In this document: positions 8,054 through 63,338 of the stretch, piece by piece
Numbering within the stretch: the first letter of the stretch is position 1
How the letters are laid out: each line of letters starts with the position of its first letter
DNA from: a virus
Taxonomy: Duplodnaviria > Heunggongvirae > Uroviricota > Caudoviricetes
Strand: one strand, 5' to 3'
Length of the DNA: 64,000 bases
Virus record (IMG/VR): IMGVR_UViG_3300008453_000586
The notes under the pieces: generated by a model
What the model saw: the letters and a program-made list of their open reading frames with translations, nothing else
What the model was told of the DNA's origin: nothing
The model's database searches: none
Made by a program: the position numbers and the translations under genes

Positions 8054-8061
8054 TATATTTG
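8054..8061 (+). promoter_or_regulatory. -7 box TATATTTG
   Basis: TAnnTTTG motif upstream of the 8080 ATG. Confidence 0.4.
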
Positions 8062-8079
8062 TATTATAAAATAAATGAT

Positions 8080-8607
8080 ATGAAATTCAGAAATTATTGC
8101 GTAGTAATCATGGGAGACACGATAGGTGTGGTCCCTGAGATTGACAAAGTTAGTGAATCAAAACCAAACGTTTTAGATGCAAAAGGCATAGTTATTGCTA
8201 CATTTACCTCGTTTATGGAACCCAAAGAACTATCCGAATGGTTCAAATCAAACAATAGAAGTTTTTTAGTTTTTGATTTGGACCAAGAGAATTCTGGGTT
8301 TTTTATCAACAAAAAAGATATCCACGAAGGGTTATTCGGTTTTTTAAAAGAATACAATGATAAAACACTTGGAGAAAACACGATAGACTTTTTAAACACC
8401 ATTAAAATAATTAACAATGGTGAAAAGAACACAAATAAAACTAGTGCGTATACCGAAACAACGGCAGTAACTGTCGAGTTAACGCAAGAAGATATCAACA
8501 ATATGTGCAAAACAGAAAAGAAAGAATTATATGACAATATTATTGATAAAGGTGTTCAAAACTTAACAGATTATGACAAAAAAATATTGGGTTTTTTGGT
8601 AAAATAA
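8080..8607 (+). CDS. hypothetical protein
   Basis: Track ORF 8059..8607 begins at TTG inside the promoter box; the first in-frame ATG is 8080. Confidence 0.35.
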   Translation: MKFRNYCVVIMGDTIGVVPEIDKVSESKPNVLDAKGIVIATFTSFMEPKELSEWFKSNNRSFLVFDLDQENSGFFINKKDIHEGLFGFLKEYNDKTLGENTIDFLNTIKIINNGEKNTNKTSAYTETTAVTVELTQEDINNMCKTEKKELYDNIIDKGVQNLTDYDKKILGFLVK

Positions 8608-8696
8608 TTACCGTAAACCCTTGACTTTATTGACAATATGTCGTATATTTAATAAGTTAAACATAACAAAAAAAAGAAAAAGTATGAACAATTTTA

Positions 8697-9530
8697 ATGA
8701 ACAAAAAGTATGTAAATTATAGTACAGATGACACAGTTTCAAAGTATTTTAAGGAAGTAAAAAAATCTGTTATATTGACTTCTAGTCAAGAAATAGAATT
8801 AGCAAAAAGAATCAAAAAGGGTGACACAAAAGCAACTACTGAATTGGTAGAAGCTAATCTTAAATTTGTGATTTCAATCGCAAAAGAATATCAAGGACAA
8901 GGTTTACCGTTATCAGATTTGATAAACGAAGGCAACTACGGTCTAATCAAAGCTGCTCACAGATTTGACCATAAGAGAGGTTTTAGATTTATCTCTTACG
9001 CTGTGTGGTGGGTAAAACAATCAATTATTCAAAGTCTTAACGATAACGCTAGAGTGGTAAGATTACCAGCCAACGTTATTAACAAAATTTCAAAATTGAA
9101 TAAAGAGATGTCAAATACAGAACAAGAAAACGAAACAGAACCTATTTACGTTGATATGTTTAATGAAGAAAATGATTTATCAATATTAAATTATTCAAAA
9201 ACTTCTTCATTAAACAAATTAGTTGGTGATGAAGGTGGTGAAATTGTTGATTTGTTAGTAAGTGAACCATTAACTTTAAACATTGACGAGATTGAGGTTA
9301 ACGATAAAGTTAAAGACGAATTAAATAAAATATTAAGTGTGTTGGATGAAAGAGAGAAAATGATTGTTGAATCATATTTCGGAATGAATACAACACATGA
9401 AGCAATGACACTTGAAGCCATTGGAGATAAGTATGATTTAACTAAAGAAAGAATCAGACAAATCAAAGAAAAAGCTATCAGAAAGTTAAGACACCATACA
9501 CAAACATTGCAAGATTTGATGAATCAATAA
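8697..9530 (+). CDS. sigma-70 family RNA polymerase sigma factor
   Basis: Region 2 (LINEGNYGLIKAAHRFD...GFRFISYAVWWVKQSI), region 3, and region 4 HTH (TLEAIGDKYDLTKERIRQIKEKAIRKLR). Confidence 0.85.
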   Translation: MNKKYVNYSTDDTVSKYFKEVKKSVILTSSQEIELAKRIKKGDTKATTELVEANLKFVISIAKEYQGQGLPLSDLINEGNYGLIKAAHRFDHKRGFRFISYAVWWVKQSIIQSLNDNARVVRLPANVINKISKLNKEMSNTEQENETEPIYVDMFNEENDLSILNYSKTSSLNKLVGDEGGEIVDLLVSEPLTLNIDEIEVNDKVKDELNKILSVLDEREKMIVESYFGMNTTHEAMTLEAIGDKYDLTKERIRQIKEKAIRKLRHHTQTLQDLMNQ

Positions 9531-21536: not shown

Positions 21537-22973
21537 ATGAGTACATTATTAAATGCTATGCAAACTAAAGATTCATTGACTGAAAACGGTATGTCAACTA
21601 ACTCTTCATCATTAAACCTATGTGTGGATTTATTCTTCCAGATTGGTGCTATGAGAGGACAAGATAAACAACGTCTTATCAATGTATTCACGAAAGCGTT
21701 TGGTGAAAACTCATTAACAGCAATGCGTTTGTTGTTCTGGGCACGTGACGTTCGTGGTGGAGCTGGAGAAAGAAAAATCTTCAGAGATATCATAGAGTAT
21801 CTTGCGGCTAACCGTACAGACGCTTTGCGTAAAAACTTACATTTGATTGCCGAGTTCGGTAGATGGGATGACTTACTTGTATTGGTAGGTACACCTTTGG
21901 AAAAAGAAGCTTTGGAGTTAATCGCTAGCGCGTTAGCTAACAAAAACGGTCTTTGTGCTAAATGGATGCCACGTCCAAACGTAGGTAATCGTGAGAAAAA
22001 AAGATGGGCGACAGCCTTGAGAAAACACATGGGTATGTCACCAAAAGACTACCGTAAAATGTTAGTGGAAAACTCTAACACCGTTGAGCAATTGATGTGT
22101 GCTAAAGAATTCTCTAAAATTGAGTACTCTAAATTGCCTTCAAAAGCAATGAGTGACTACATGAAAGCGTTCTCTAAAAATGACTTGGCGCGTTTCCAAG
22201 AATACCTTAACTCTGTTGAGAAAGGTGAAACAAAAATAAACGCTGGTGCCGTATACCCATACGACATTATCAAAAGCTTGAACCAAGGTAACACCAAAGG
22301 TGCTAACGCACAATGGGGTGCACTACCTAACTACATGGAAAACAACAACGAGAAATTCTTGCCAGTTGTTGACGTGTCAGGTTCAATGTCTTGTTCAGCT
22401 GGTGGTAGCGCTAGCGTAACTTGTATGGATGTAGCAATCTCTTTGGGATTATACATTTCAGAAAGAAACGTTGGTCCTTTCCAAGATGCGTTTGTGACTT
22501 TCTCAAGTCGTCCTTCGCTTCAAATCTTGAAAGGTTCTCTTAGTGAGAGATACAACCAATTGAGACGTGCTGATTGGGCAATGTCTACCAACATCGAAGC
22601 AGTGTTCAACTTGATACTTGACAAAGCGAAAGCTTCTAAAGTTTCTCAAGAAGAAATGCCAACAATGATTCTTATCCTTTCGGATATGGAATTCAACTAC
22701 GCTGGTGGTGGAAGTTGGAACCCAACTGCGCAACAAATGATTGAAGCCAAATACGCTCAAGCTGGCTACGCTATGCCTAAAGTTGTATACTGGAACATTC
22801 AGTCAAGAGGTGATAACAACAAACCAGTTCAGTTTGATAAAAACGGTACTGCTTTAGTGTCTGGTTTCTCACCATCTTTATTAACTAGCTTGCTAGCGGG
22901 TAAAGAGATGACACCATACTCTATGATGATGTCTGTTATCGGCTCAGAACGTTACGCTTGCGTAACTGTTTAA
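21537..22973 (+). CDS. vWA-domain protein (DUF2828/UCP015417-like, possibly TROVE-related)
   Basis: MIDAS-like VVDVSGSMSCSAGGS in the C-terminal half; helical N-terminal region. Start set at ATG 21537 (the track start is TTG inside the promoter). Confidence 0.45.
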   Translation: MSTLLNAMQTKDSLTENGMSTNSSSLNLCVDLFFQIGAMRGQDKQRLINVFTKAFGENSLTAMRLLFWARDVRGGAGERKIFRDIIEYLAANRTDALRKNLHLIAEFGRWDDLLVLVGTPLEKEALELIASALANKNGLCAKWMPRPNVGNREKKRWATALRKHMGMSPKDYRKMLVENSNTVEQLMCAKEFSKIEYSKLPSKAMSDYMKAFSKNDLARFQEYLNSVEKGETKINAGAVYPYDIIKSLNQGNTKGANAQWGALPNYMENNNEKFLPVVDVSGSMSCSAGGSASVTCMDVAISLGLYISERNVGPFQDAFVTFSSRPSLQILKGSLSERYNQLRRADWAMSTNIEAVFNLILDKAKASKVSQEEMPTMILILSDMEFNYAGGGSWNPTAQQMIEAKYAQAGYAMPKVVYWNIQSRGDNNKPVQFDKNGTALVSGFSPSLLTSLLAGKEMTPYSMMMSVIGSERYACVTV

Positions 22974-25371: not shown

Positions 25372-26391
25372 ATGAGTAAAAGAGATTATTATGCGGTTTT
25401 AGGGTTAGCCAAAGGGGCTTCACAAGATGAAATCAAAAAAGCTTATAGAAAGCTAGCCAAAGAATTACACCCAGATAAAGGTGGTGATGAAAATAAGTTT
25501 AAAGAAGTGTCTGAAGCTTATGAAGTTCTGTCAGACGAGGATAAAAAATCAAATTATGATAGATTCGGACATAATCAACCTAGAGGCGGTGGTGGAAACC
25601 CATTTGGTTTTAACATGGAAGACATATTTGGTAGTCATTTCAACCAAGGTTATAAACAAGTAAGAGTTGGTGAATCTCTTAGTATCACAGTCAAATTAAC
25701 TCTAGAAGAAATATTCTCTGGTGTTAATAAAACATATAACTATAACAGAAATGTCAGTTGTACAGACTGTGAAGGTCATGGGGGTACTGACCCATATGAT
25801 TGTCCATCGTGTAATGGTAGTGGTATGATAACAAACCTTACTAGAACACCAATGGGAGTGTTTCAATCATCACAACCATGCCCTACGTGTGACGCTACTG
25901 GGACCAAACACAGAACTCCTTGTAACACATGTAGTGGTAGTGGTTTAACAAATATAAAAGAAACTGTAGAAGTTACAGTTCCAGCTGGTATTCAAAATGG
26001 AATGACATTTGTGATGGAAGGTAAAGGTCAAGGTATTAAATCAGGAAACAATGGTGATTTACACATAAAAATCATTGAGTTGCCACATAAAGTGTTTACT
26101 AGAATAGGTGCTGATTTAAAGATGAATCTTAAACTATCTTATCCACAATTGGTTTTGGGCGACAAGGTAGAAATAGACACAATTGAAGGTAACAAAATAA
26201 GAATGAGTGTTCCAGAGTATAGCGACGTTGGTACTAACCTTAGAGTTCCGTTTAAAGGTGTTAGCGTATACGGTAAAGATGGTAGAGGTGACCTTATAGT
26301 TACGTTAGGTATTGAAATACCTAAAGCTTTGGGTGATGAAGCTAAAGAAGCTGTGATAAATCTTAAAGAAAAACTTGCAAAGGAAAAATAA
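25372..26391 (+). CDS. dnaJ: DnaJ chaperone (J domain, four CxxCxGxG zinc-finger repeats, C-terminal domain)
   Basis: DYYAVLGL...HPDK J-domain with HPD; [32 protein letters not shown] repeats. Confidence 0.85.
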
Positions 26392-26441: not shown

Positions 26442-26876
26442 ATGGCAAAATACGAAGCTCCGTATGACGACACATTAGATTTGTATAACCAATTAATCGA
26501 TAGAGCAGGGTTAGCAAACTACTTAAACATTACAATCTTAGCTGACAACAAACAAAAGAAAATCTTTGTGGTTAAGAAATGTACAGAACTTGAAAAGTTC
26601 AAAACTGGTGATGACGTAAACATTATCATCAACCAAACTCTTTTGGACCAATTACAACCAGACCAAATTCAAATCGTAATGGAAGAATCATTGGCTGGTA
26701 TTCATTACAACACCGAAAAAGACAAATTAGAAATGACTAACCCAGATGTAATCACATATAGTGGTGTCTTGGCTAAATACGGTTTTGATAAATGGAATGT
26801 GATGAGAGAGTCAATCATAACTCTTCAACAAGCTGAAAAGCAACAAGAAGATGAAACAGAAGCTATAACAAAATAA
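26442..26876 (+). CDS. hypothetical protein
   Basis: 144-aa ORF. Confidence 0.35.
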   Translation: MAKYEAPYDDTLDLYNQLIDRAGLANYLNITILADNKQKKIFVVKKCTELEKFKTGDDVNIIINQTLLDQLQPDQIQIVMEESLAGIHYNTEKDKLEMTNPDVITYSGVLAKYGFDKWNVMRESIITLQQAEKQQEDETEAITK

Positions 26877-27298
26877 TGACTAGGGATGAAATCGCTTCAT
26901 TAAGTCCAAACGCTATTGTGTGGGATGATTTAGACGAAGCAATTATAGGGTTGGCCAAAAGAGAAGATTTTGGCCCCCTAGTTATCTACAATTCTGACGG
27001 TATTGTAGATATTAAATTAGACCCAACTTTTTATCAGAGTTTTGAAGACGATGATGAATTTGACTCAATAGATAATTGGGACAGACCAAGTTTTGAAGGT
27101 TTAGTAGCTTACGATGTTGAAAAAGCGATTAAAATATTAATGAATGAGATGGAAGTGTCTGATGATGATATCGAAGATGGTATGACACGAGATGATGTGG
27201 CTTATATGATGGCTTTGGAATATTTCGGTTATAATGTGGCTGGAGCGTTTGTTGGAGATTACACACCGTTGCATTTGTTTATAGAAGAAACAGAATAA
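26876..27298 (+). CDS. hypothetical acidic protein
   Basis: 140-aa ORF. Confidence 0.35.
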   Translation: MTRDEIASLSPNAIVWDDLDEAIIGLAKREDFGPLVIYNSDGIVDIKLDPTFYQSFEDDDEFDSIDNWDRPSFEGLVAYDVEKAIKILMNEMEVSDDDIEDGMTRDDVAYMMALEYFGYNVAGAFVGDYTPLHLFIEETE

Positions 27299-27315: not shown

Positions 27316-28035
27316 ATGAATTACACACAAGAATTTAAAGACTATGCTATTAAGCATATGGGAATATCTGGTATAGATTTCCACAATTGGGAACAACTTC
27401 AAGAAAAAATCTATGGTGCACAAGCTCCTTTGATTACAACTGGTCCGTCAGCATCTTTGACACCATATATCCTTGAAGAAAGAGAATTGAGGGTGACTCA
27501 AATGGATATCTTTTCCAGAATGATGATGGATAGAATCATTTGGTTGGCTGGTCCAGTTAACGATAGAATGAGCACTGTAGTACAAGCACAGTTATTGTTC
27601 TTGGACAATTTAGAATTGAAAGACATCACCTTGCACGTAGACAGTCCAGGTGGTTCCGTTAAATCAGGTTTGTCAATCGTAGACATTATGAACTACGTTA
27701 AATCCGATATCATCACAATCAACACTGGTATGGCTGCTAGTATGGGTAGCATCCTTTTGGGTGCTGGGACCAAAGGTAAGAGATTTACGTTGAATTTCAG
27801 TCGCGTAATGTTACACCAAGTATCAAGTGGTGCGCAAGGTACTATTCAAGACATCGAAATCTCATTGGCAGAAGCTAGAAAATACAACGAACTTTTGTTT
27901 GGTTTGTTAGGTCAATATACTGACAAAGACCCAGCACAAGTTAAAATAGATGCTGACAGAGATTTATGGTTAAATGCGGAAGAAGCTAAAGCTTACGGTA
28001 TTGTTGATGATATAATCATAAACAGAAAGAAATAA
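27316..28035 (+). CDS. clpP: ATP-dependent Clp protease proteolytic subunit ClpP
   Basis: HVDSPGGSV and GMAASMGS (catalytic Ser) motifs, then MLHQ (catalytic His). Confidence 0.85.
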   Translation: MNYTQEFKDYAIKHMGISGIDFHNWEQLQEKIYGAQAPLITTGPSASLTPYILEERELRVTQMDIFSRMMMDRIIWLAGPVNDRMSTVVQAQLLFLDNLELKDITLHVDSPGGSVKSGLSIVDIMNYVKSDIITINTGMAASMGSILLGAGTKGKRFTLNFSRVMLHQVSSGAQGTIQDIEISLAEARKYNELLFGLLGQYTDKDPAQVKIDADRDLWLNAEEAKAYGIVDDIIINRKK

Positions 28036-28355
28036 TGTTTTCAACCATTCAAAAATATTATAAAGAACTTAAGGTTAACGCCAAAGACTTTATAAAAAAC
28101 ATTGAACAAGAAAGCCTCGAAACCAAAGAGGCTTTCATGTTGATTGTTGACTCGGTCAAAGAAGGGAAAGAATTGACTCAAGAAGAAAAGAATAAAATTG
28201 GTGAACAATTGAAAGATGTTTTGAAAACTACTGGGTTGGTTGGTATTGCATTGTTGCCTGGTGGTACGATATTTTTCATTCTTACCAAGTATTTAAAACT
28301 TAACAAGTATATATTACCATCTTCGTTTCAAGAAAAAGAAAATAATTTAAAATAA
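28035..28355 (+). CDS. hypothetical membrane-associated protein
   Basis: 106 aa with one TM (LVGIALLPGGTIFFIL). Confidence 0.3.
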   Translation: MFSTIQKYYKELKVNAKDFIKNIEQESLETKEAFMLIVDSVKEGKELTQEEKNKIGEQLKDVLKTTGLVGIALLPGGTIFFILTKYLKLNKYILPSSFQEKENNLK

Positions 28356-28380: not shown

Positions 28381-28388
28381 TATATTTG
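28381..28388 (+). promoter_or_regulatory. -7 box TATATTTG with -33 TTG at 28358-28360, driving the tmRNA
   Basis: Consensus spacing of 21 nt; the tmRNA 5' end lies about 50 nt downstream. Confidence 0.5.
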
Positions 28389-28438
28389 TAAAAAATAAAA
28401 AATACGTATATTTATATACATAAGTTCTTTAAATTATT

Positions 28439-28813
28439 GGGGTTAAACGGTATTGACTGGATATAGTCGTAAATCGTAAGCATGTAGTGCTAGATTGGAA
28501 GCACTTTAATCTGTCTATTAAAAAATTGAATTGACAACGATTTCATCGTTTCTGAAAATTTCCTTAACGAAGCTGCATGCAGTTTCGCAGGAGAGGTAGC
28601 TGTAGCCTAATTATAGCTAATAGTGGTAATTCCACTTGATGGTGATAAATCACCAAGAACCAACTTCCTAGTTGTAAAAAAAGGAACGATGGTCGCTGCA
28701 CTTCCATCGGGATAAATAACGCAGCACAACTTTGCTAGAATTAGAAACTAGATAAACATGTAGAAAGCTTTTGAAGAATATGCAACACTGGGGTTCGATT
28801 CCCCATAACTCCA
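28439..28813 (+). ncRNA. ssrA: tmRNA (SsrA)
   Basis: 5' GGGGUUA pairs with 3' UAACUCC (7-bp acceptor stem, one G-U). T-arm GGGGUUCGAUUCCCC next to the 3' end, discriminator A. The 5' GGGGUUAAACGGUAUUGACUGG resembles the canonical tmRNA 5' region. Internal tag-like frame ...gaa gct gca tgc agt ttc gca gga gag gta gct gta gcc taa encodes ...EAACSFAGEVAVA-stop. Confidence 0.7.
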
Positions 28814-28860
28814 CTCGTTATGATTCTGCTCAAAAATAACCGATGAGTGAGAAATAAAAA

Positions 28861-28898
28861 CCCCACTGTAAATCGCTTTACGTGGGGTTTAATTTTTT
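28861..28898 (+). terminator. rho-independent terminator after the tmRNA
   Basis: Stem ccccac...gtgggg followed by a T-run. Confidence 0.55.
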
Positions 28899-39004: not shown

Positions 39005-39092
39005 ACATGGTGTTTGTAGTACGTAACGGTAGCGAGTCTGGTTGTGAGCCAGATGACAGAAATGTCCTTGCGGGTTCGAGTCCCGTCTTTCA
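39005..39092 (+). tRNA. degenerate tRNA-like element (canonical T-arm and 3' acceptor strand; 5' acceptor unpaired)
   Basis: T-arm gcggg-TTCGAGT-cccgt followed by ctttcac+c. The only 5' partner, gtgtttg, leaves three U·U mismatches. Anticodon-like hairpin tctgg-uuGUGag-ccaga. Confidence 0.25.
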
Positions 39093-39099
39093 CCCTAAA

Positions 39100-39362: not shown

Positions 39363-39446
39363 TGTGATGTGGATGAATGGTTTAGTCACCAGCCTGATAC
39401 GCTGGGTGTTTATAACACAATGTGGGTTCGAGTCCCACCGTCACAA
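39363..39446 (+). tRNA. tRNA-like gene with long variable arm and GAT-containing anticodon loop (identity uncertain)
   Basis: Acceptor tgtgatg/cgtcaca, anticodon stem ccagc/gctgg with loop cuGAUac, variable-arm hairpin gtgtt-tat-aacac, T-arm gtggg-TTCGAGT-cccac; D-arm imperfect. Confidence 0.45.
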
Positions 39447-39454
39447 CAATATAA

Positions 39455-42750: not shown

Positions 42751-43689
42751 ATGAAAAAAGAAATAAGAACAATATTAAGAGAAGACATGAAAAAAAATGC
42801 GTTGGGTGTTGTGGTTACAAGACCAACACAAGAACTGATAGTTATGCGCGGAATACCAGGTTCTGGTAAATCAACAAAAGCTAAAGAACTAGTAGGTGAA
42901 GGTATCATACACTCCACAGACGATGTTATTGAGTCACAAGGTGATTACAACAAATTCTTTGCAGCAATGTTTGAGTCGAAAGATTTCACACCATTGTCAA
43001 GAGCGCACTCAACAAACTTGAAAAATGCGATAAAATCTTTGAAAGAAGGTTTATCACCAGTTATTGTGGATAACACGAACATCAAACAAAACGAATCCAA
43101 AGCGTATGTGAAAGCAGCGTTAGAATTAGGTTTGTCTGATAACAACATAAAATTTGTTGATATAGGCACCAATGGATTGTCAGCTGAAATACTTGCTGAG
43201 AGAAATACTCACGGTGTACCATTGGAAAAAATTCAATCAATGATTGAATCTCACAAAGGTCAAGGGTTGTTAACATTGAAAAGTGTTTTGGAGTCTAAAG
43301 ACATGTACAAAGAATCTGATGTGGCATATTCGTGTGTGTTGTTGGAAAAAGCGTCACAAAATGTTTTGTTGCACAATTTGGAACGTTATATGCCAGAAGG
43401 GTGGAAAGTATTTGCGCACCACATGACAATAAATATGGGTGCGTTAAAACAAAAAGAACTTTTGGGTACTGAACAATTTTTGAAGGTAACACAAGTTGGT
43501 TTGAGCGATATGGCTATGGCTGTTAAGGTTAAAACTGACATTGAAACCAAAAATGCTTTCCCACATGTAACTGTAGCGATAAACCCAGATGGTGGTAAAC
43601 CAGTAATGTCTAACGAGATAACTAAATGGCAAGATGTAAAACCATTTATATTGTTGGGGAAAGTAACTGAAATAAAAAAGGGGTCTTAG
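42751..43689 (+). CDS. polynucleotide kinase (P-loop) fused to 2H phosphoesterase (CPDase/LigT-like)
   Basis: N-terminal Walker A GIPGSGKST with the kinase fold; C-terminal tandem H-x-T-x motifs HHMTI and PHVTVA typical of the 2H superfamily. N-terminal MKKEIRTILRED motif. Confidence 0.6.
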   Translation: MKKEIRTILREDMKKNALGVVVTRPTQELIVMRGIPGSGKSTKAKELVGEGIIHSTDDVIESQGDYNKFFAAMFESKDFTPLSRAHSTNLKNAIKSLKEGLSPVIVDNTNIKQNESKAYVKAALELGLSDNNIKFVDIGTNGLSAEILAERNTHGVPLEKIQSMIESHKGQGLLTLKSVLESKDMYKESDVAYSCVLLEKASQNVLLHNLERYMPEGWKVFAHHMTINMGALKQKELLGTEQFLKVTQVGLSDMAMAVKVKTDIETKNAFPHVTVAINPDGGKPVMSNEITKWQDVKPFILLGKVTEIKKGS

Positions 43690-50120: not shown

Positions 50121-51257
50121 ATGAAAAATAATGAATTAGCTATCGTTACATATATAAAAAAATATGGGCTAGATAAAGCTATAAATGACTTTAAACTTAA
50201 ATCAAGAGAATACGATAAGAAGATTCTTTTGAAATACGACCAATTATCATCACCAACTCTTATGGGGTTGCCAGAGATGCAAGATTGTCGTGGTCTTATT
50301 CTTGAAAAAGGTACGTGGAAAGTTATGTCGTTGGCGTTCCGTAAATTCTTCAACGCTGAGGAAGGAAACGCTGCTAAAATAGATTGGAACACAGCCAATG
50401 TGTTAGAGAAACTTGATGGTACCCTTATACAAGTATATTGGGATTGGCACGCTAATAAATGGTTTGCTGGTACAACTGGTACCGCTGAGGGTGAAGGTGA
50501 AGTAAACAACAAAAACGGAACAACATTTAACGATTTGTTTTGGGATACAGTAAACAACAAATACACATTCAATGAATGTTTATTGAACAAAGACCTTATA
50601 TATGTTTTTGAGTTGACAACACCATATAACATAGTGGTTAAACCACATGGTGAATCATCAGCAACATTGTTAACTGTGAGAAACAGAGAAACACTAGTTG
50701 AATTATCTGGAAAAGCTTTAGAAATGACCTCTGTGTCATTAAGCATACCATTGGTAAAATCGTTTGACTTGAATGCTAAGGATGTAGGTGCATTGTTACG
50801 TACATTTGAAGGTATGCCATGGTCAGAAGAAGGTTACGTTGTTGTAGACGCTAATTTCAACCGTATCAAGATAAAAAACCCAGCTTATGTTGCGGTTCAC
50901 CACTTGAAAGGTAAAACTGCTGAACACAATATCATAACTATCGTTAAATCTAACGAGATAGAAGAATTCGCCTCAACTTTCCCAGAAAGAAAAGACGAAT
51001 TGTTAAGACTTAAAGAAAACTACGATAAATTGACTGTAAAGTTAAATGATATGTGGGTTGAGTTAAGTGCTCGTAAACCAAGAAACATAACCAAAGAAGA
51101 AAAGAAAAGATACGCTGCGGCTGTCTTTGAAGTTTGTGGTAAACACGACTTAAAACAATTCACTGGATTGTATTTTGGGTTGGTTGATGGTAAAGTTGAT
51201 TCAGTAGAAGACTTCATAGTTAACTACGATGACAAATTGTTATACAAAATGCTCTAA
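50121..51257 (+). CDS. ATP-dependent RNA ligase (Rnl family)
   Basis: Motif I LEKLDGTL (KxDG), motif IV EGYVVV, motif V KIKNPAY. Confidence 0.65.
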   Translation: MKNNELAIVTYIKKYGLDKAINDFKLKSREYDKKILLKYDQLSSPTLMGLPEMQDCRGLILEKGTWKVMSLAFRKFFNAEEGNAAKIDWNTANVLEKLDGTLIQVYWDWHANKWFAGTTGTAEGEGEVNNKNGTTFNDLFWDTVNNKYTFNECLLNKDLIYVFELTTPYNIVVKPHGESSATLLTVRNRETLVELSGKALEMTSVSLSIPLVKSFDLNAKDVGALLRTFEGMPWSEEGYVVVDANFNRIKIKNPAYVAVHHLKGKTAEHNIITIVKSNEIEEFASTFPERKDELLRLKENYDKLTVKLNDMWVELSARKPRNITKEEKKRYAAAVFEVCGKHDLKQFTGLYFGLVDGKVDSVEDFIVNYDDKLLYKML

Positions 51258-54918: not shown

Positions 54919-55971
54919 ATGAAAAAAATGATTAAATTTCCGTCTATCGAACAATTCAGAAGCGTAGTAGCTACTATCCTTAGACAATACAATTTCGTAG
55001 GTTTAGACGAGAATGGTGACGCTATTTATGACACCACTAAACCAAAACCAACACTTACATTCAAAGGTACTGTAAAACTTCATGGAACCAACGCTGGTGT
55101 TTCTTTCAAATACGGTTATGATAACACTAGCGAGTATTGGGTACAATCTCGTGAAAACATTATCACGCCAGAAAAAGACAATGCTGGTTTTGCTTTCTTT
55201 GTTGAATCACATAAAGAAGCTTTTAAAAAATTTGCTAGTCAAATTGATTCGTTAGGTATGTTCGATGTTCGTCACAATATCGTCACAATCTACGGTGAAT
55301 GGGCTGGTGGTAACATCCAAAAGGGTGTTGGTATTTCAAACCTACCAAAATCATTCTTTATCTTTGGTGTTAAAGTAACTCCGATTACACAAACCGAAGA
55401 AGAAGCTAGACAAAAACCAGCTTATTGGATTCCTTCACATTATTTAAAAAGCCCTGAGGATAACATTTACAATATTGAAGATTTCCAAACATGGACAATG
55501 GATATTGACTTTAACATGCCACAGTTGGTTCAAAACAAATTGTCTGAACTTACACTAGCTGTTGAAGAAGAATGTCCAGTTGCCAAAGCATTTGGGTTCT
55601 CTGGAATCGGTGAAGGTATCGTATGGTCAACTAACCTAAACGGTAACGTACACCGTTTCAAAGTGAAAGGTGAAAAACACTCTAGTTCAAAAGTAAAAAC
55701 ACTTGCAGCAGTTGACACTGAGAAATTAGAGTCAATCCAAAGCTTTGTTGAATATGCTGTAACTGAAAGTCGTTTCAACCAAGCGCTTGAAAACGTATTC
55801 CCTAACGAAGAACCAATCGAAAACAAAAAATTGGGTGATGTAATTCGTTGGGTAGTAAACGACGTAATAAAAGAGGAAATGGACACCATGACTGATAACA
55901 AAATCGAACCAAAAGATGTGAACAAATACATCTCTTCAAAAGTTAGAGATATGTTCTTTAAGTTGGTGTAA
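54919..55971 (+). CDS. Rnl2-like RNA ligase
   Basis: Motif I VKLHGTN (KxHGxN as in T4 Rnl2 KIHGTN), motif IV YGEWAGG, motif V RFKVKGEKH. Confidence 0.65.
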   Translation: MKKMIKFPSIEQFRSVVATILRQYNFVGLDENGDAIYDTTKPKPTLTFKGTVKLHGTNAGVSFKYGYDNTSEYWVQSRENIITPEKDNAGFAFFVESHKEAFKKFASQIDSLGMFDVRHNIVTIYGEWAGGNIQKGVGISNLPKSFFIFGVKVTPITQTEEEARQKPAYWIPSHYLKSPEDNIYNIEDFQTWTMDIDFNMPQLVQNKLSELTLAVEEECPVAKAFGFSGIGEGIVWSTNLNGNVHRFKVKGEKHSSSKVKTLAAVDTEKLESIQSFVEYAVTESRFNQALENVFPNEEPIENKKLGDVIRWVVNDVIKEEMDTMTDNKIEPKDVNKYISSKVRDMFFKLV

Positions 55972-61587: not shown

Positions 61588-62874
61588 ATGTGGACTATTT
61601 ATATTTTAGAATGTAATAGCCCACATTTGTTTTTAAATATGATATCAAAATATAAAGTTTCGCTAATAATTTCTATATTAATTTTTTTAGCATCTTTTAC
61701 CGTACAGTCTTTATTACTTTTAAATGTAATTCAATATTCAAAATTTTTAGGTTATTTTGAATTAATATGTTTTATAACTTTTTTCATACCTTTTTATTTT
61801 TTCATAAAAGGTTTTAACAATAAAATAAGACGCAAAGAAAATGAATTTTCCAATAGAATGGACGCGATTAATAAATCGAATGCGGTTATTGAGTTTAATT
61901 TAGATGGTACGATAATTTTTGCAAATGAATTATTTTTAAATACATTAGGGTACGAAAATCAAGATGAAATTGTAGGGAAGCATCACAGTTTATTTGTTCA
62001 AGATGGTGTAAAAGACACTAAAGAATATGAACACTTTTGGGAAACACTTAAAAAAGGTGAATTTTTTACTGGTGAAATTATCAGAAAGAAAAAAAATGGT
62101 GATTTAATTTATCTTCAAGCGACATACAACCCTATCTTTGGGAATAACGGTAAATCTTACAGAGTAATGAAAATAGCTACTGATATTACCGAAAAAATTA
62201 ACCAACAATTGGAGATTGACAAGAAAAACACATACCTAGAACATGCTGCCAAGATATTAAGACATGATATGCATTCTGGTATTAATACATACATACCTAG
62301 AGGTGTATCATCTTTAGAAAGAAGATTAACCCCAGAAATCATAGAATCGGCAAAATTAGAAGCACCTTTAAAAATGATAAAAGAAGGTTTGAAACACACC
62401 CAAAAAGTTTATAAAGGTGTGTATGAATTTACCAACTTGGTAAAAACTGATGTGGTTTTAAGTAAAACTGAATGTAGTATCCAAAAAATAATGGATGATT
62501 ATTTAACTTCCACCGCTTACAAATCACAAGTATATTTAGATGATAATTTACCTACAATCGAAGTCAATGAATCTTTGATGTGTACATCTATTGATAATTT
62601 AATTAGAAATGGTTTAAAATACAACGATAGTAAAAGCAAACTTGTTAAAATTTACAGTGAAGATGGTTATATTTGTATTGAAGATAATGGTAGGGGTATT
62701 GACCAGAAAGATTTTGATGAACTTTCAAAACCTTACGTTAGAAAAGAAGGTCAAAAAGAAACAGGTACTGGGTTAGGACTTAATATATGTAAAGCGATTT
62801 TAAAAGAACATGGTTTTGATATCACAGCTGAAAAGTTAGAACAAGGTACAAAATTAAGAATAAAAATAAAATAA
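61588..62874 (+). CDS. sensor histidine kinase (TM, PAS, HisKA, HATPase_c)
   Basis: N-terminal TM segments; PAS (IEFNLDGTIIFANELFLNTLGY); H-box LEHAAKILRHDMHSGI; N/G1/G2 boxes NLIRNGLKYN, EDNGRGID, GTGLGLNICKAIL. Confidence 0.75.
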   Translation: MWTIYILECNSPHLFLNMISKYKVSLIISILIFLASFTVQSLLLLNVIQYSKFLGYFELICFITFFIPFYFFIKGFNNKIRRKENEFSNRMDAINKSNAVIEFNLDGTIIFANELFLNTLGYENQDEIVGKHHSLFVQDGVKDTKEYEHFWETLKKGEFFTGEIIRKKKNGDLIYLQATYNPIFGNNGKSYRVMKIATDITEKINQQLEIDKKNTYLEHAAKILRHDMHSGINTYIPRGVSSLERRLTPEIIESAKLEAPLKMIKEGLKHTQKVYKGVYEFTNLVKTDVVLSKTECSIQKIMDDYLTSTAYKSQVYLDDNLPTIEVNESLMCTSIDNLIRNGLKYNDSKSKLVKIYSEDGYICIEDNGRGIDQKDFDELSKPYVRKEGQKETGTGLGLNICKAILKEHGFDITAEKLEQGTKLRIKIK

Positions 62875-62900: not shown

Positions 62901-63338
62901 ATGATTAACTCTATTTTATTAGTGGATGATGAAGATTTATTCCACTTAGTATTTGAAGACGCATGTAGTCTTTTAGACATAACGCTTTCCTTAGAAAGTT
63001 TAGATAGTGCTGACACAGCTGAAACCATGTTCAAAGATTGGAACGAAAACGCTGATACTTCAAACAAACCAGAATGTGTGTTTGTTGACTTAAATATAAT
63101 TGGTTCATCTTATGATGGTATTGAATTGATTAGAAAAATAAATTTTGATTACGGTAACAATGTTGTTATCGGTATTATTTCATCTAGTGATGAAGCCAAC
63201 GAGCAAGCAAAAGCAATTCAAGCTGGTGCACAATTTTGGATTATCAAATCAGATGAAATTGAACCTAGACTTGAAGAGTTTAGAAAAGATTACGAAGGTT
63301 ACAAAAACAAAACCAACCCATTTAAAATCTATAGATAA
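62901..63338 (+). CDS. stand-alone response-regulator receiver domain protein
   Basis: ILLVDDEDL (acidic pocket), VFVDLNI (phospho-acceptor Asp), conserved Ser/Lys positions; no output domain. Confidence 0.6.
   Translation: MINSILLVDDEDLFHLVFEDACSLLDITLSLESLDSADTAETMFKDWNENADTSNKPECVFVDLNIIGSSYDGIELIRKINFDYGNNVVIGIISSSDEANEQAKAIQAGAQFWIIKSDEIEPRLEEFRKDYEGYKNKTNPFKIYR

Follow-up and report, generated by a model that had tools for sequence, protein, structure and literature searches.

Genes for transfer-messenger RNA (tmRNA, or SsrA) have been reported in phages before, in mycobacteriophage clusters such as C1, in huge phages with SmpB (Al-Shayeb et al. 2020), and in Bacillus phage G. The tmRNA tag of phage G, AKLNITNNELQVA, ends in ...ELQVA, and the phage encodes both ClpP and ClpX, with its tmRNA and clpP located far apart (gp550-556 vs gp257-258). 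Among bacteria, the native tag of Bacteroides is GETNYALAA and causes strong degradation. The Mollicutes pair mf-SsrA/mf-Lon, in which a long tag is read by Lon, is a precedent for a tag and a protease changing together (PMC9382460), and the ending ...LVA is still a working ssrA-type degron in other bacteria (PMC9382460). We analyzed a tmRNA gene at positions 28439 to 28813 of a 64,000-nucleotide stretch of a Caudoviricetes genome (IMG/VR record IMGVR_UViG_3300008453_000586). The whole stretch is referred to as the window, and all features given below by window coordinates are on the + strand. An earlier note on this DNA, made from the letters alone, had called phage-encoded tmRNAs uncommon, which was overstated in view of the reports above. 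Phage tmRNAs have usually been listed in genome papers and then left unexplained; the family described here makes the question testable.

The element resembles the earlier phage tmRNAs in being a complete gene in a large, lytic-type genome with many tRNAs and translation genes. It differs from them in having no DNA similarity to any GenBank phage (blastn of the RNA in distant mode and megablast of the surrounding 20 kb returned tRNA-sized matches only, and no relatives) and in having a tag longer than any quoted for them. Unlike the arrangement in phage G, the tmRNA holds a fixed place immediately after clpP, and ClpX is not in view in the window. The tag is similar to that of Mollicutes in that it is long, has a hydrophobic end other than LAA (NYAFA there, VAVA here), and departs from the norm of its relatives. 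However, the Mollicutes pair is a cellular system that relies on Lon and arose in a setting of ClpXP loss, whereas the protease neighbor here is a ClpP that may read the tag.

With SsrA of the Bacteroidota type, the phage RNA shares the acceptor stem with G3:U70, the T-arm, a long helix 2, a stop codon in the loop of helix 5, an A/U-rich stretch that precedes the resume codon, and a putative pseudoknot 1 (PK1). Blocks common to both are GTAAGCATGTAGTGC...GCACTTAAATCT on the 5' side and GATAAACATGTAGAAAGC on the 3' side. In contrast to that type, the phage tag is 25 and not 9 residues long; its first residue is Asp, or Gly in some members, and its last four are VAVA or LAVA instead of ALAA. The RNA is about 20-25 nt shorter, its PK2-PK4 region is divergent, and it is encoded by a phage beside clpP rather than in a bacterial chromosome. 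The earlier description of the tag as unlike the usual A-L-A-A ending is borne out by comparison to the Bacteroidota tags GENNYALAA and GETNYALAA.

The kind of element is thus already known, and it is the tag and the gene linkage that are distinctive. We know of no earlier description of the combination seen here: a selected 25-residue tag unlike that of the presumed host phylum, a fixed clpP adjacency, and a co-occurring suppressor tRNA and recoded release factor (RF) gene. We consider it likely that the element is a functional, separately transcribed one-piece tmRNA of a clade of large phages, that it acts in ribosome rescue, and that its tag probably leads to a Clp-type protease.

Identification of the tmRNA gene

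The element is a genuine phage-encoded one-piece tmRNA with a tag ending in VAVA. The mature RNA spans 28439-28813 (375 nt including the discriminator A), as defined by Rfam RF00023, nhmmer homologs, and structure and covariation. RF00023 matched 28439-28816 over its full length (model positions 1-374) with 58.9 bits compared to a gathering score of 47 and an E-value of 1.7e-20; relatives scored 63-106 bits. The earlier note had proposed a tmRNA at this position with a tRNA-like acceptor stem, a T-arm, and an A discriminator, and had named this covariance model as a check. All of these features are present, and the match is significant and above the gathering score.

The 7-bp acceptor stem is formed by a 5' strand, GGGGTTA (28439-28445), which contains G3 of the G3:U70 pair, and a 3' strand, TAACTCC (28806-28812), which is followed by the discriminator A at 28813. 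The G3:U70 wobble is the alanine identity element. It was retained in all members except L031, whose degenerate stem pairs at 4 of 7 positions, and the corresponding pair of alignment columns is G-U in all 26 distinct rows. All 7 bp form in 25 of 27 members, and positions 4-7 occur in about ten sequence variants; L031 and L024 are the members with imperfect stems. Four members have T instead of A as the discriminator. The T-arm (28789-28805; TGGGG, loop TTCGATT, CCCCA) has a 5-bp stem that is 100% paired across the family, with compensatory changes in 4 of the 5 pairs. In the window copy the discriminator A is followed by CTC, so that CCA is not encoded; the sister copies L001 and L008, from which the window copy differs at few positions only, encode ACCA.

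Recovery of the family and structural covariation

Pattern scans of IMG/VR with the exact 3' end, the tag end, and the PK1 block yielded 35 loci with 27 distinct sequences, and nhmmer found a full-length homolog in all 35. Another 12 distinct copies, chosen independently of the RNA, came from a separate search that used the neighboring ClpP as its seed, for a total of 39. The contigs from which the homologs came were up to 360-362 kb in length.

The 27 sequences were aligned (alignment A2), and RNAalifold recovered the acceptor stem, helices 2a and 2d, PK1 stem 1, helix 5, the first post-tag hairpin, and the T-arm in the consensus structure. Standard pairing was found in 96.5% of structure cells of this alignment, from which the structure was itself drawn and which favors it somewhat, compared to 42-51% when the 3' partners were slid by 1-3 columns. 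Compensatory changes were found in 27 of 48 pairs, compared to 5-10 in the slid controls. For four of five measures, 0 of 500 shuffles reached the observed value; for the count of further pair types, 3 of 500 did.

The 5' strand of helix 2a (28458-28464) pairs with approximately 28778-28785; the helix has 8 pairs, 5 of them with compensatory changes, and 95.7% of its cells are paired. The 5' strand of helix 2d, GCATGT (28480-28485), pairs with ACATGT (28756-28761), with 99.4% pairing, and helices 2a and 2d together contain 6 covarying pairs. PK1 stem 1 (28486-28505; AGTGCT/AGCACT around the loop AGATTGGA) is 100% paired, with one covarying pair (C-G to U-A). Having served as a search pattern, the PK1 block does not vary among the first 27 sequences; in the 12 copies ascertained through ClpP, the block varies and the stem is kept. 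A putative second PK1 stem (AGAUU/AAUCU) fits the window sequence, and the PK1 loop is nearly invariant, in part because it belongs to the pattern by which the family was found. Helix 5 (28600-28616; CTGT/ATAG) holds the TAA stop codon in its loop and has compensatory changes in 4 of 4 pairs. Beyond it lies a variable pseudoknot region (28622-28755) with the equivalents of PK2-PK4, which is poorly alignable across the family. The first post-tag hairpin in this region (28622-28626 with 28632-28636) covaries, and the remaining PK2-PK4 hairpins and pseudoknot pairings are a by-eye drawing from the window sequence only.

The tag reading frame

The tag frame (28533-28610) begins at a predicted resume codon, GAC (Asp), and has 25 codons, DNDFIVSENFLNEAACSFAGEVAVA, before the stop codon TAA (28608-28610). 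The resume codon, GAC or GGN, was assigned from the Rfam register, the opening of the frame, and ARAGORN calls in relatives. ARAGORN picked the same start in L010, L038, L215, L220, L222, and L224 and a later start elsewhere; where it calls tmRNAs of this family, it often sets the tag start too late. Most members have GAC as the resume codon, and L010, L011, L012, L017, L025, L215, L220, and L232 have GGN (Gly). The frame was open in 39 of 39 distinct copies, with 24-26 codons, in-frame indels only, and always TAA as the stop. Typical tags have 25 codons; that of L010 has 24 (an in-frame 3-nt deletion), and those of L028 and L218/L219 have 26. The internal frame ending in GEVAVA-TAA that had been read from the letters is present, and an open frame is kept in all 39 copies. 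The architecture around the resume codon, which had also been put forward for checking, was found with its resume codon, open reading frame (ORF), helix 5 layout, conserved frame, and covarying helices.

Summed entropy by codon position was 14.6, 10.7, and 20.5 for first, second, and third positions, the third being the most variable. Residues E8, N9, and E21 of the tag were invariant, and V6, F10, A14, G20, A23, V24, and A25 were nearly so, giving the consensus [DG]-N-x-[FL]-x-V-S-E-N-F-[LF]-x-E-A-x5-G-E-[VL]-A-V-A. Residue 22 is Val or Leu, with Leu written as both CTT and TTA, so that the window tag ends in V-A-V-A and most relatives end in L-A-V-A. Judged by these substitution patterns, the tag behaves as translated sequence, and purifying selection on it is clear.

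A small hairpin lies within tag codons 2-6 (28537-28549; ACGA...TCGT). Compensatory changes occurred in 3 of its 4 pairs, and residues 3 and 5 of the tag change with them. The presence of hairpins inside the frame indicates that the tag is under both RNA and peptide constraint. We also noted a second in-frame hairpin, GCTG-CATG-CAGT (28572-28583), which by eye seems to covary with residues 14-17.

Promoter, leader, and terminator

A candidate promoter box of the Bacteroidota type, TATATTTG, lies 50 nt ahead of the mature RNA, at 28381-28388. It fits TAnnTTTG, the -7 box of Bacteroidota promoters. This motif was over-represented in the window (135 matches compared to 106 +/- 10 expected). Intergenic DNA makes up 14.6% of the window and holds 20 of the 29 copies of the form TATMTTTG on the + strand, where they typically sit immediately ahead of genes. 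Of 27 relatives, 17 have a TAnnTTTG box upstream of the tmRNA, in most cases at a distance of 72-75 nt. A scan with the sigma-70 consensus gave promoter matches at chance level only. The earlier claim that the RNA has its own promoter is thus upheld by the Bacteroidota-type box, though not by the sigma-70 scan.

Between the box and the gene is a conserved leader motif, GTTCTTTAA (28424-28432), 7-15 nt before the mature 5' end. It was found in nearly all members, even in the most diverged ones (L012, L017, and L025), and is possibly a context for precursor processing. In most relatives in the clade of the window copy, a leader hairpin lies in the stretch from the promoter box to GTTCTTTAA; the window copy has none.

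Downstream is a predicted intrinsic terminator (28857-28898), a hairpin AAAACCCCAC...GTGGGGTTT followed by AATTTTTT. The hairpin was calculated at -17.3 kcal/mol and is followed by TTTAATTTTTT. An equivalent hairpin and T-run were seen by eye downstream in most relatives, with different stem sequences and the pairing kept, in agreement with the terminator closure that had been claimed. A simple terminator rule missed this bulged hairpin and chose a different, weaker site; the rule was replaced by a folding check across the family. The positions of the promoter box and the terminator imply a primary transcript of approximately 500 nt that would need trimming at both ends. These signals suggest that the tmRNA is transcribed separately, from its own promoter box and with its own terminator.

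ClpP and the conserved gene order

Five genes precede the tmRNA. The conserved block begins with a DnaJ co-chaperone (25372-26391; Pfam DnaJ, DnaJ_CXXCXGXG, and DnaJ_C), followed by a putative phage metallopeptidase (26442-26876; Pfam PF18894), a conserved acidic protein of 140 aa (26876-27298), a ClpP protease subunit of 239 aa (27316-28035; Pfam CLP_protease, 194.9 bits), and a small membrane protein (28035-28355). The ClpP translation matched a model of cellular ClpP, NCBIfam NF011091, over its full length (residues 5-237) with 238 bits, below the equivalog cut-off of 361, and matched a prohead-protease model with 65 bits only. The Ser, His, and Asp motifs GMAASMG, MLHQ, and DRD can be read from it. 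By these matches and motifs, the neighboring gene is predicted to encode a true ClpP and not a prohead protease.

The order DnaJ, metallopeptidase, ClpP, tmRNA was found by tblastn in every tmRNA-ascertained locus with enough flank, and it holds down to 55% identity for ClpP and 34% for DnaJ. In the reverse test, which started from ClpP, all 25 of 25 loci with at least 69% identity and sufficient room downstream had a tmRNA 116-1850 nt downstream.

Two loci with a ClpP of approximately 60% identity and without a tmRNA carried other structured RNAs. GOLLD RNA was found at 8220-8650 of L239 and at 8032-8466 of L243 (241-243 bits), and freshwater-1 RNA at 6261-6323 of L243. These RNAs sit in dense tRNA arrays beside clpP and point to a freshwater habitat of the wider phage group.

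Host and origin

The host of the phage clade is probably a member of the Bacteroidota, as had been guessed earlier. Four observations point, indirectly, to this assignment. A Shine-Dalgarno-like motif was found upstream of 4 of 73 start codons, below the 9% background; the TAnnTTTG boxes are enriched in intergenic DNA; the 5' half of the RNA resembles Bacteroidota-type tmRNAs only; and the closest GenBank ClpPs are those of huge phages and Prevotella Lak megaphages. The resemblance was assessed against distinct tmRNAs taken from viral contigs, 18 tagged GENNYALAA and 33 tagged ANDENYALAA, which are presumably host ssrA genes at prophage ends. The family HMM aligned to the 5' half (helix 2 and PK1) of the GENNYALAA group only, and over the full length in 2 of the 18 (44.9 and 40.6 bits). 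All members of the gammaproteobacterial (ANDENYALAA) group matched it only at the universal 3' tRNA-like segment. From these alignments, the phage RNA looks like a derivative of a Bacteroidota-type tmRNA in which the tag was replaced or extended.

A search for the PK1 block in 185,579 bacterial species genomes found it in one contig only, and neither a bacterial donor nor a host ssrA was found. The contig (L047; CAUYTX010000233.1, 'Gammaproteobacteria bacterium CCP3-SC1AL1') is 20.6 kb long and carries the block of DnaJ, metallopeptidase, ClpP, and tmRNA.

Proposed mechanism

The steps of processing, charging, ribosome entry, and tagging proposed here follow established tmRNA biology (review PMC3985003). 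RNase P would process the 5' end of the precursor and host nucleases its 3' end, to which CCA would then be added, possibly by the CCA-adding enzyme of the phage. Host AlaRS would charge the tmRNA with alanine through G3:U70. The charged tmRNA would then enter stalled ribosomes with an empty A site, together with SmpB and EF-Tu. Translation would resume at GAC, guided by the A/U-rich stretch at -6 to -1, so that Ala and the 25 residues DNDFIVSENFLNEAACSFAGEVAVA would be appended before the stop at TAA. Ribosomes would thereby be freed during infection, and the non-polar ...AVA end would probably mark the incomplete proteins for the phage ClpP with a host unfoldase.

The demand for rescue could be raised in two ways. 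The phage tRNA(CUA) would cause read-through of host stop codons and plausibly increase the demand; read-through by suppressor tRNAs generates tmRNA substrates (Ueda et al. 2002, as described in PMC3985003). Decay of host mRNA during infection would add to the load. The Clp route is the best guess for the fate of the tagged proteins because clpP is the fixed neighbor, and we infer that ClpP degrades them. Given that ...LVA still works, a terminus other than LAA would not preclude degron function of the VAVA end.

Alternative explanations

Several observations weigh against a functional tmRNA whose tag leads to a Clp-type protease. The RF00023 alignment of the window copy is confident at the tRNA-like ends, but the middle is poor and of low posterior probability. 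ARAGORN, whose tmRNA mode had been suggested as a further check, called no tmRNA in either the whole 64-kb window or the sub-region. One G-G mismatch lies within helix 2a of this copy. The canonical C-terminal L-A-A of the ssrA degron read by ClpXP is not present in the tag, and part of the conservation of the tag reflects RNA structure and not the peptide. No SmpB, ClpX, or other Clp unfoldase was found among the Pfam-annotated genes of the window, so these partners would have to come from the host or from the genome outside the window. The earlier suggestion that tmRNA and clpP form a tagging and degradation pair brought by the phage is supported by the conserved gene order; with neither ClpX nor SmpB in the window, the functional pairing is plausible. 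The association is also limited from the side of ClpP. In 19 loci with a ClpP of 50-67% identity, nhmmer and ARAGORN found no tmRNA (Rfam agreed on the 13 tested), and the megaphages with the most similar ClpP (LR745206, LR756502, Lak-C1, and Lak-B1) had no tmRNA within 6 kb of clpP. ClpP thus occurs without an adjacent tmRNA in related, Lak, and huge phages, which indicates that ClpP does not need the tmRNA; the linkage is a stable trait of this clade and not a general property of phage ClpP. Lastly, the L047 contig of the family is binned in a 'Gammaproteobacteria' assembly, which counts against the host assignment; it is probably a phage contig binned with a bacterium, not an indication of the host.

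If the tmRNA served rescue only, recycling ribosomes when host ssrA transcription stops or demand rises, the tag would have no specific tie to the phage ClpP, and the adjacency to clpP would reflect a general block of proteostasis and translation genes. The region is rich in genes for the maintenance of translation (a tRNA array, a CCA enzyme, two RNA ligases, a PNK-like protein, and the RF1-like gene), and both the ClpPs without a tmRNA in related phages and the lack of a visible unfoldase among the window genes would fit. However, the tag peptide (E8, N9, F10, G20, E21, A23, V24, and A25) is conserved while PK2-PK4 diverges beyond alignment, which argues that the peptide itself matters, and in this family the tmRNA was found solely beside ClpP. 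We regard this rescue-only reading as possible, though not probable. The long tag could instead have diverged from a host tag of the GENNYALAA type to become an orthogonal degron, read by the phage ClpP with a phage adaptor (such as the acidic 140-aa protein) or by the metallopeptidase. The phage tag has 25 residues and a different end, compared to 9 residues in the recovered Bacteroidota-type tmRNAs and to the native Bacteroides GETNYALAA. Mollicutes offer the precedent of a joint switch of tag and protease (PMC9382460), and ClpP, the metallopeptidase, and the conserved protein are all fixed neighbors. Yet an adaptor was not identified, and ...AVA resembles ...LVA, which is still read by host-type ClpXP; such a private degron seems unlikely to us. 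If the tag is read by a phage protease module, the two would be a natural orthogonal degron-protease pair, and large phages would manage both ribosome rescue and protein turnover in the infected cell. A broader scheme, which we consider quite unlikely, would combine the tRNA(CUA), an RF1-like factor dependent on recoding, the tmRNA, a private degron, and the phage ClpP module into a kit for taking over stop codons. Read-through of host stops would drive ribosomes to mRNA ends, and the phage tmRNA would rescue them and tag the products. The phage ClpP module, not the host ssrA pathway, would then destroy these products, yielding amino acids and free ribosomes for the phage.

Two further explanations concern the gene itself. 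A bacterial ssrA on a cellular contig, or an ssrA-derived prophage attachment site, might be mistaken for a phage gene: ssrA is a common site of prophage integration, many IMG/VR contigs have host-type tmRNAs at their ends, and one family contig lies in a bacterial assembly. The gene is nevertheless of full length and lies inside contigs that reach 362 kb, with phage-like gene content that lacks cellular housekeeping genes. The same phage gene block is present on the contig from the bacterial assembly, and except for that contig the PK1 block was absent from the bacterial species genomes searched. This origin is extremely improbable. Decay of a captured host tmRNA into a relic without function is also highly improbable, even with the ARAGORN miss, the mismatch in helix 2a, a CCA encoded in a sister copy and not here, and the imperfect acceptor stems of L031 and L024. 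The 39 distinct copies keep their helices by compensatory change and also keep the tag frame, the promoter, and the terminator, and the window copy is nearly the same as L001 and L008. As for ARAGORN, it called a tmRNA in approximately one-third of the homologous loci and missed about two thirds of the family. Since it misses the window copy and most of the family, surveys based on ARAGORN alone would under-count phage tmRNAs of this type, which is of practical relevance because it is the tool used for tmRNAs in surveys of huge phages. A functional phage tmRNA with a probable route to a Clp-type protease remains the reading we favor.

The RF1-like gene and its in-frame stop codons

Downstream of the tmRNA are tRNA-Met genes, an HNH endonuclease, an RF1-like gene, a Band 7 protein, tRNA(CUA), the CCA-adding enzyme, and a 13-gene tRNA array. 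The RF1-like gene (30587-31264) has 225 codons, contains the PCRF and RF-1 domains, and is without domain 1. An ORF of 133 aa with the GGQ motif only (30863-31264) is the end of this gene, and the upstream part encodes the RF codon-recognition domain (...GNHRWQRVPPTERKGRVHTSS...). The 133-aa protein was considered as an ArfB-like stand-alone factor, and this was rejected because the upstream in-frame sequence completes an RF1 without domain 1.

The frame of the gene is interrupted by TGA codons at 30701-30703 and 30740-30742. Translated with Trp at these codons, the product matched positions 106-332 of 347 of RF1 (prfA) with 191.9 bits, compared to 99.7 for RF2 and 69.4 for PrfH. Both TGA positions are conserved in orthologs of 66-100% identity; the exceptions are an Arg at the second site in one locus and an Ala at the first site in a paralog. 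In L014 (approximately 8060-8741), L016, and L035, the gene reads ...TGT CTT TAG CGG... and continues in the +1 frame. The prfB (RF2) frameshift site, CUU UGA C, is arranged in this way, except that the stop codon here is the RF1-specific one, and the CTT TAG C site falls at the same protein position as the second TGA of the window gene. No other real gene of the window has an in-frame TGA, and no tRNA(UCA) that would explain these codons was found in any family locus searched. Borges et al. described code-change genes in phages without mentioning tmRNAs or recoding within RF genes.

Suppressor tRNA and other genes of the window

The amber-suppressor tRNA (anticodon CTA) is located at 33376-33448, with a TATCTTTG box at 33355, and tRNA(CUA) accompanies the tmRNA in 18 family loci. 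L227 has a tRNA with the anticodon TTA. Among the stop codons of the window, TAG is ordinary but rare (6 of 73 genes), and TGA is used in 1 of 73. General reassignment of TGA or TAG in the window was considered and rejected: the in-frame TGAs are confined to the RF1-like gene, and read-through of TAG adds just 1-28 codons. Late genes elsewhere in the genome may be recoded.

The CCA-adding tRNA nucleotidyltransferase (35646-36827; Pfam PolyA_pol and PolyA_pol_RNAbd) is conserved in the family and scored 208.6 bits with NCBIfam NF009814, under the curated cut-off of 290. The window also encodes RNA ligases of the Rnl1 and Rnl2 types, a PNK-like kinase/phosphoesterase, RNase HII, and PARP and ART domains. 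Its phage-like content includes an SbcC-like nuclease, an anti-restriction protein, and a Gp23-like fragment, and there are no cellular housekeeping genes. The CCA enzyme (at the position above), the PNK-like kinase/phosphoesterase (42751-43689), the Rnl1-type ligase (50121-51257), and the Rnl2-type ligase (54919-55971) form a translation-repair set that resembles the tRNA-repair pathway of T4. That pathway acts against host anticodon nucleases.

Three tRNAs of the window, for Met (30369-30455), His (39010-39095), and Ile (39363-39447), are 85-87 nt long and had lower Rfam scores than their neighbors. Such tRNAs are normally 73-77 nt, and these may have insertions or unusual arms. A Ro-like RNA-binding protein (21537-22973; DUF2828/DUF7788) matched phrog_850 with 524 bits. 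In cells, the partners of Ro proteins are small Y RNAs, whose genes are often close by. A sigma-70 family factor (8697-9530), a PAS histidine kinase (61588-62874), and a response-regulator receiver protein (62901-63338) were also found, and the last two look like a two-component pair.

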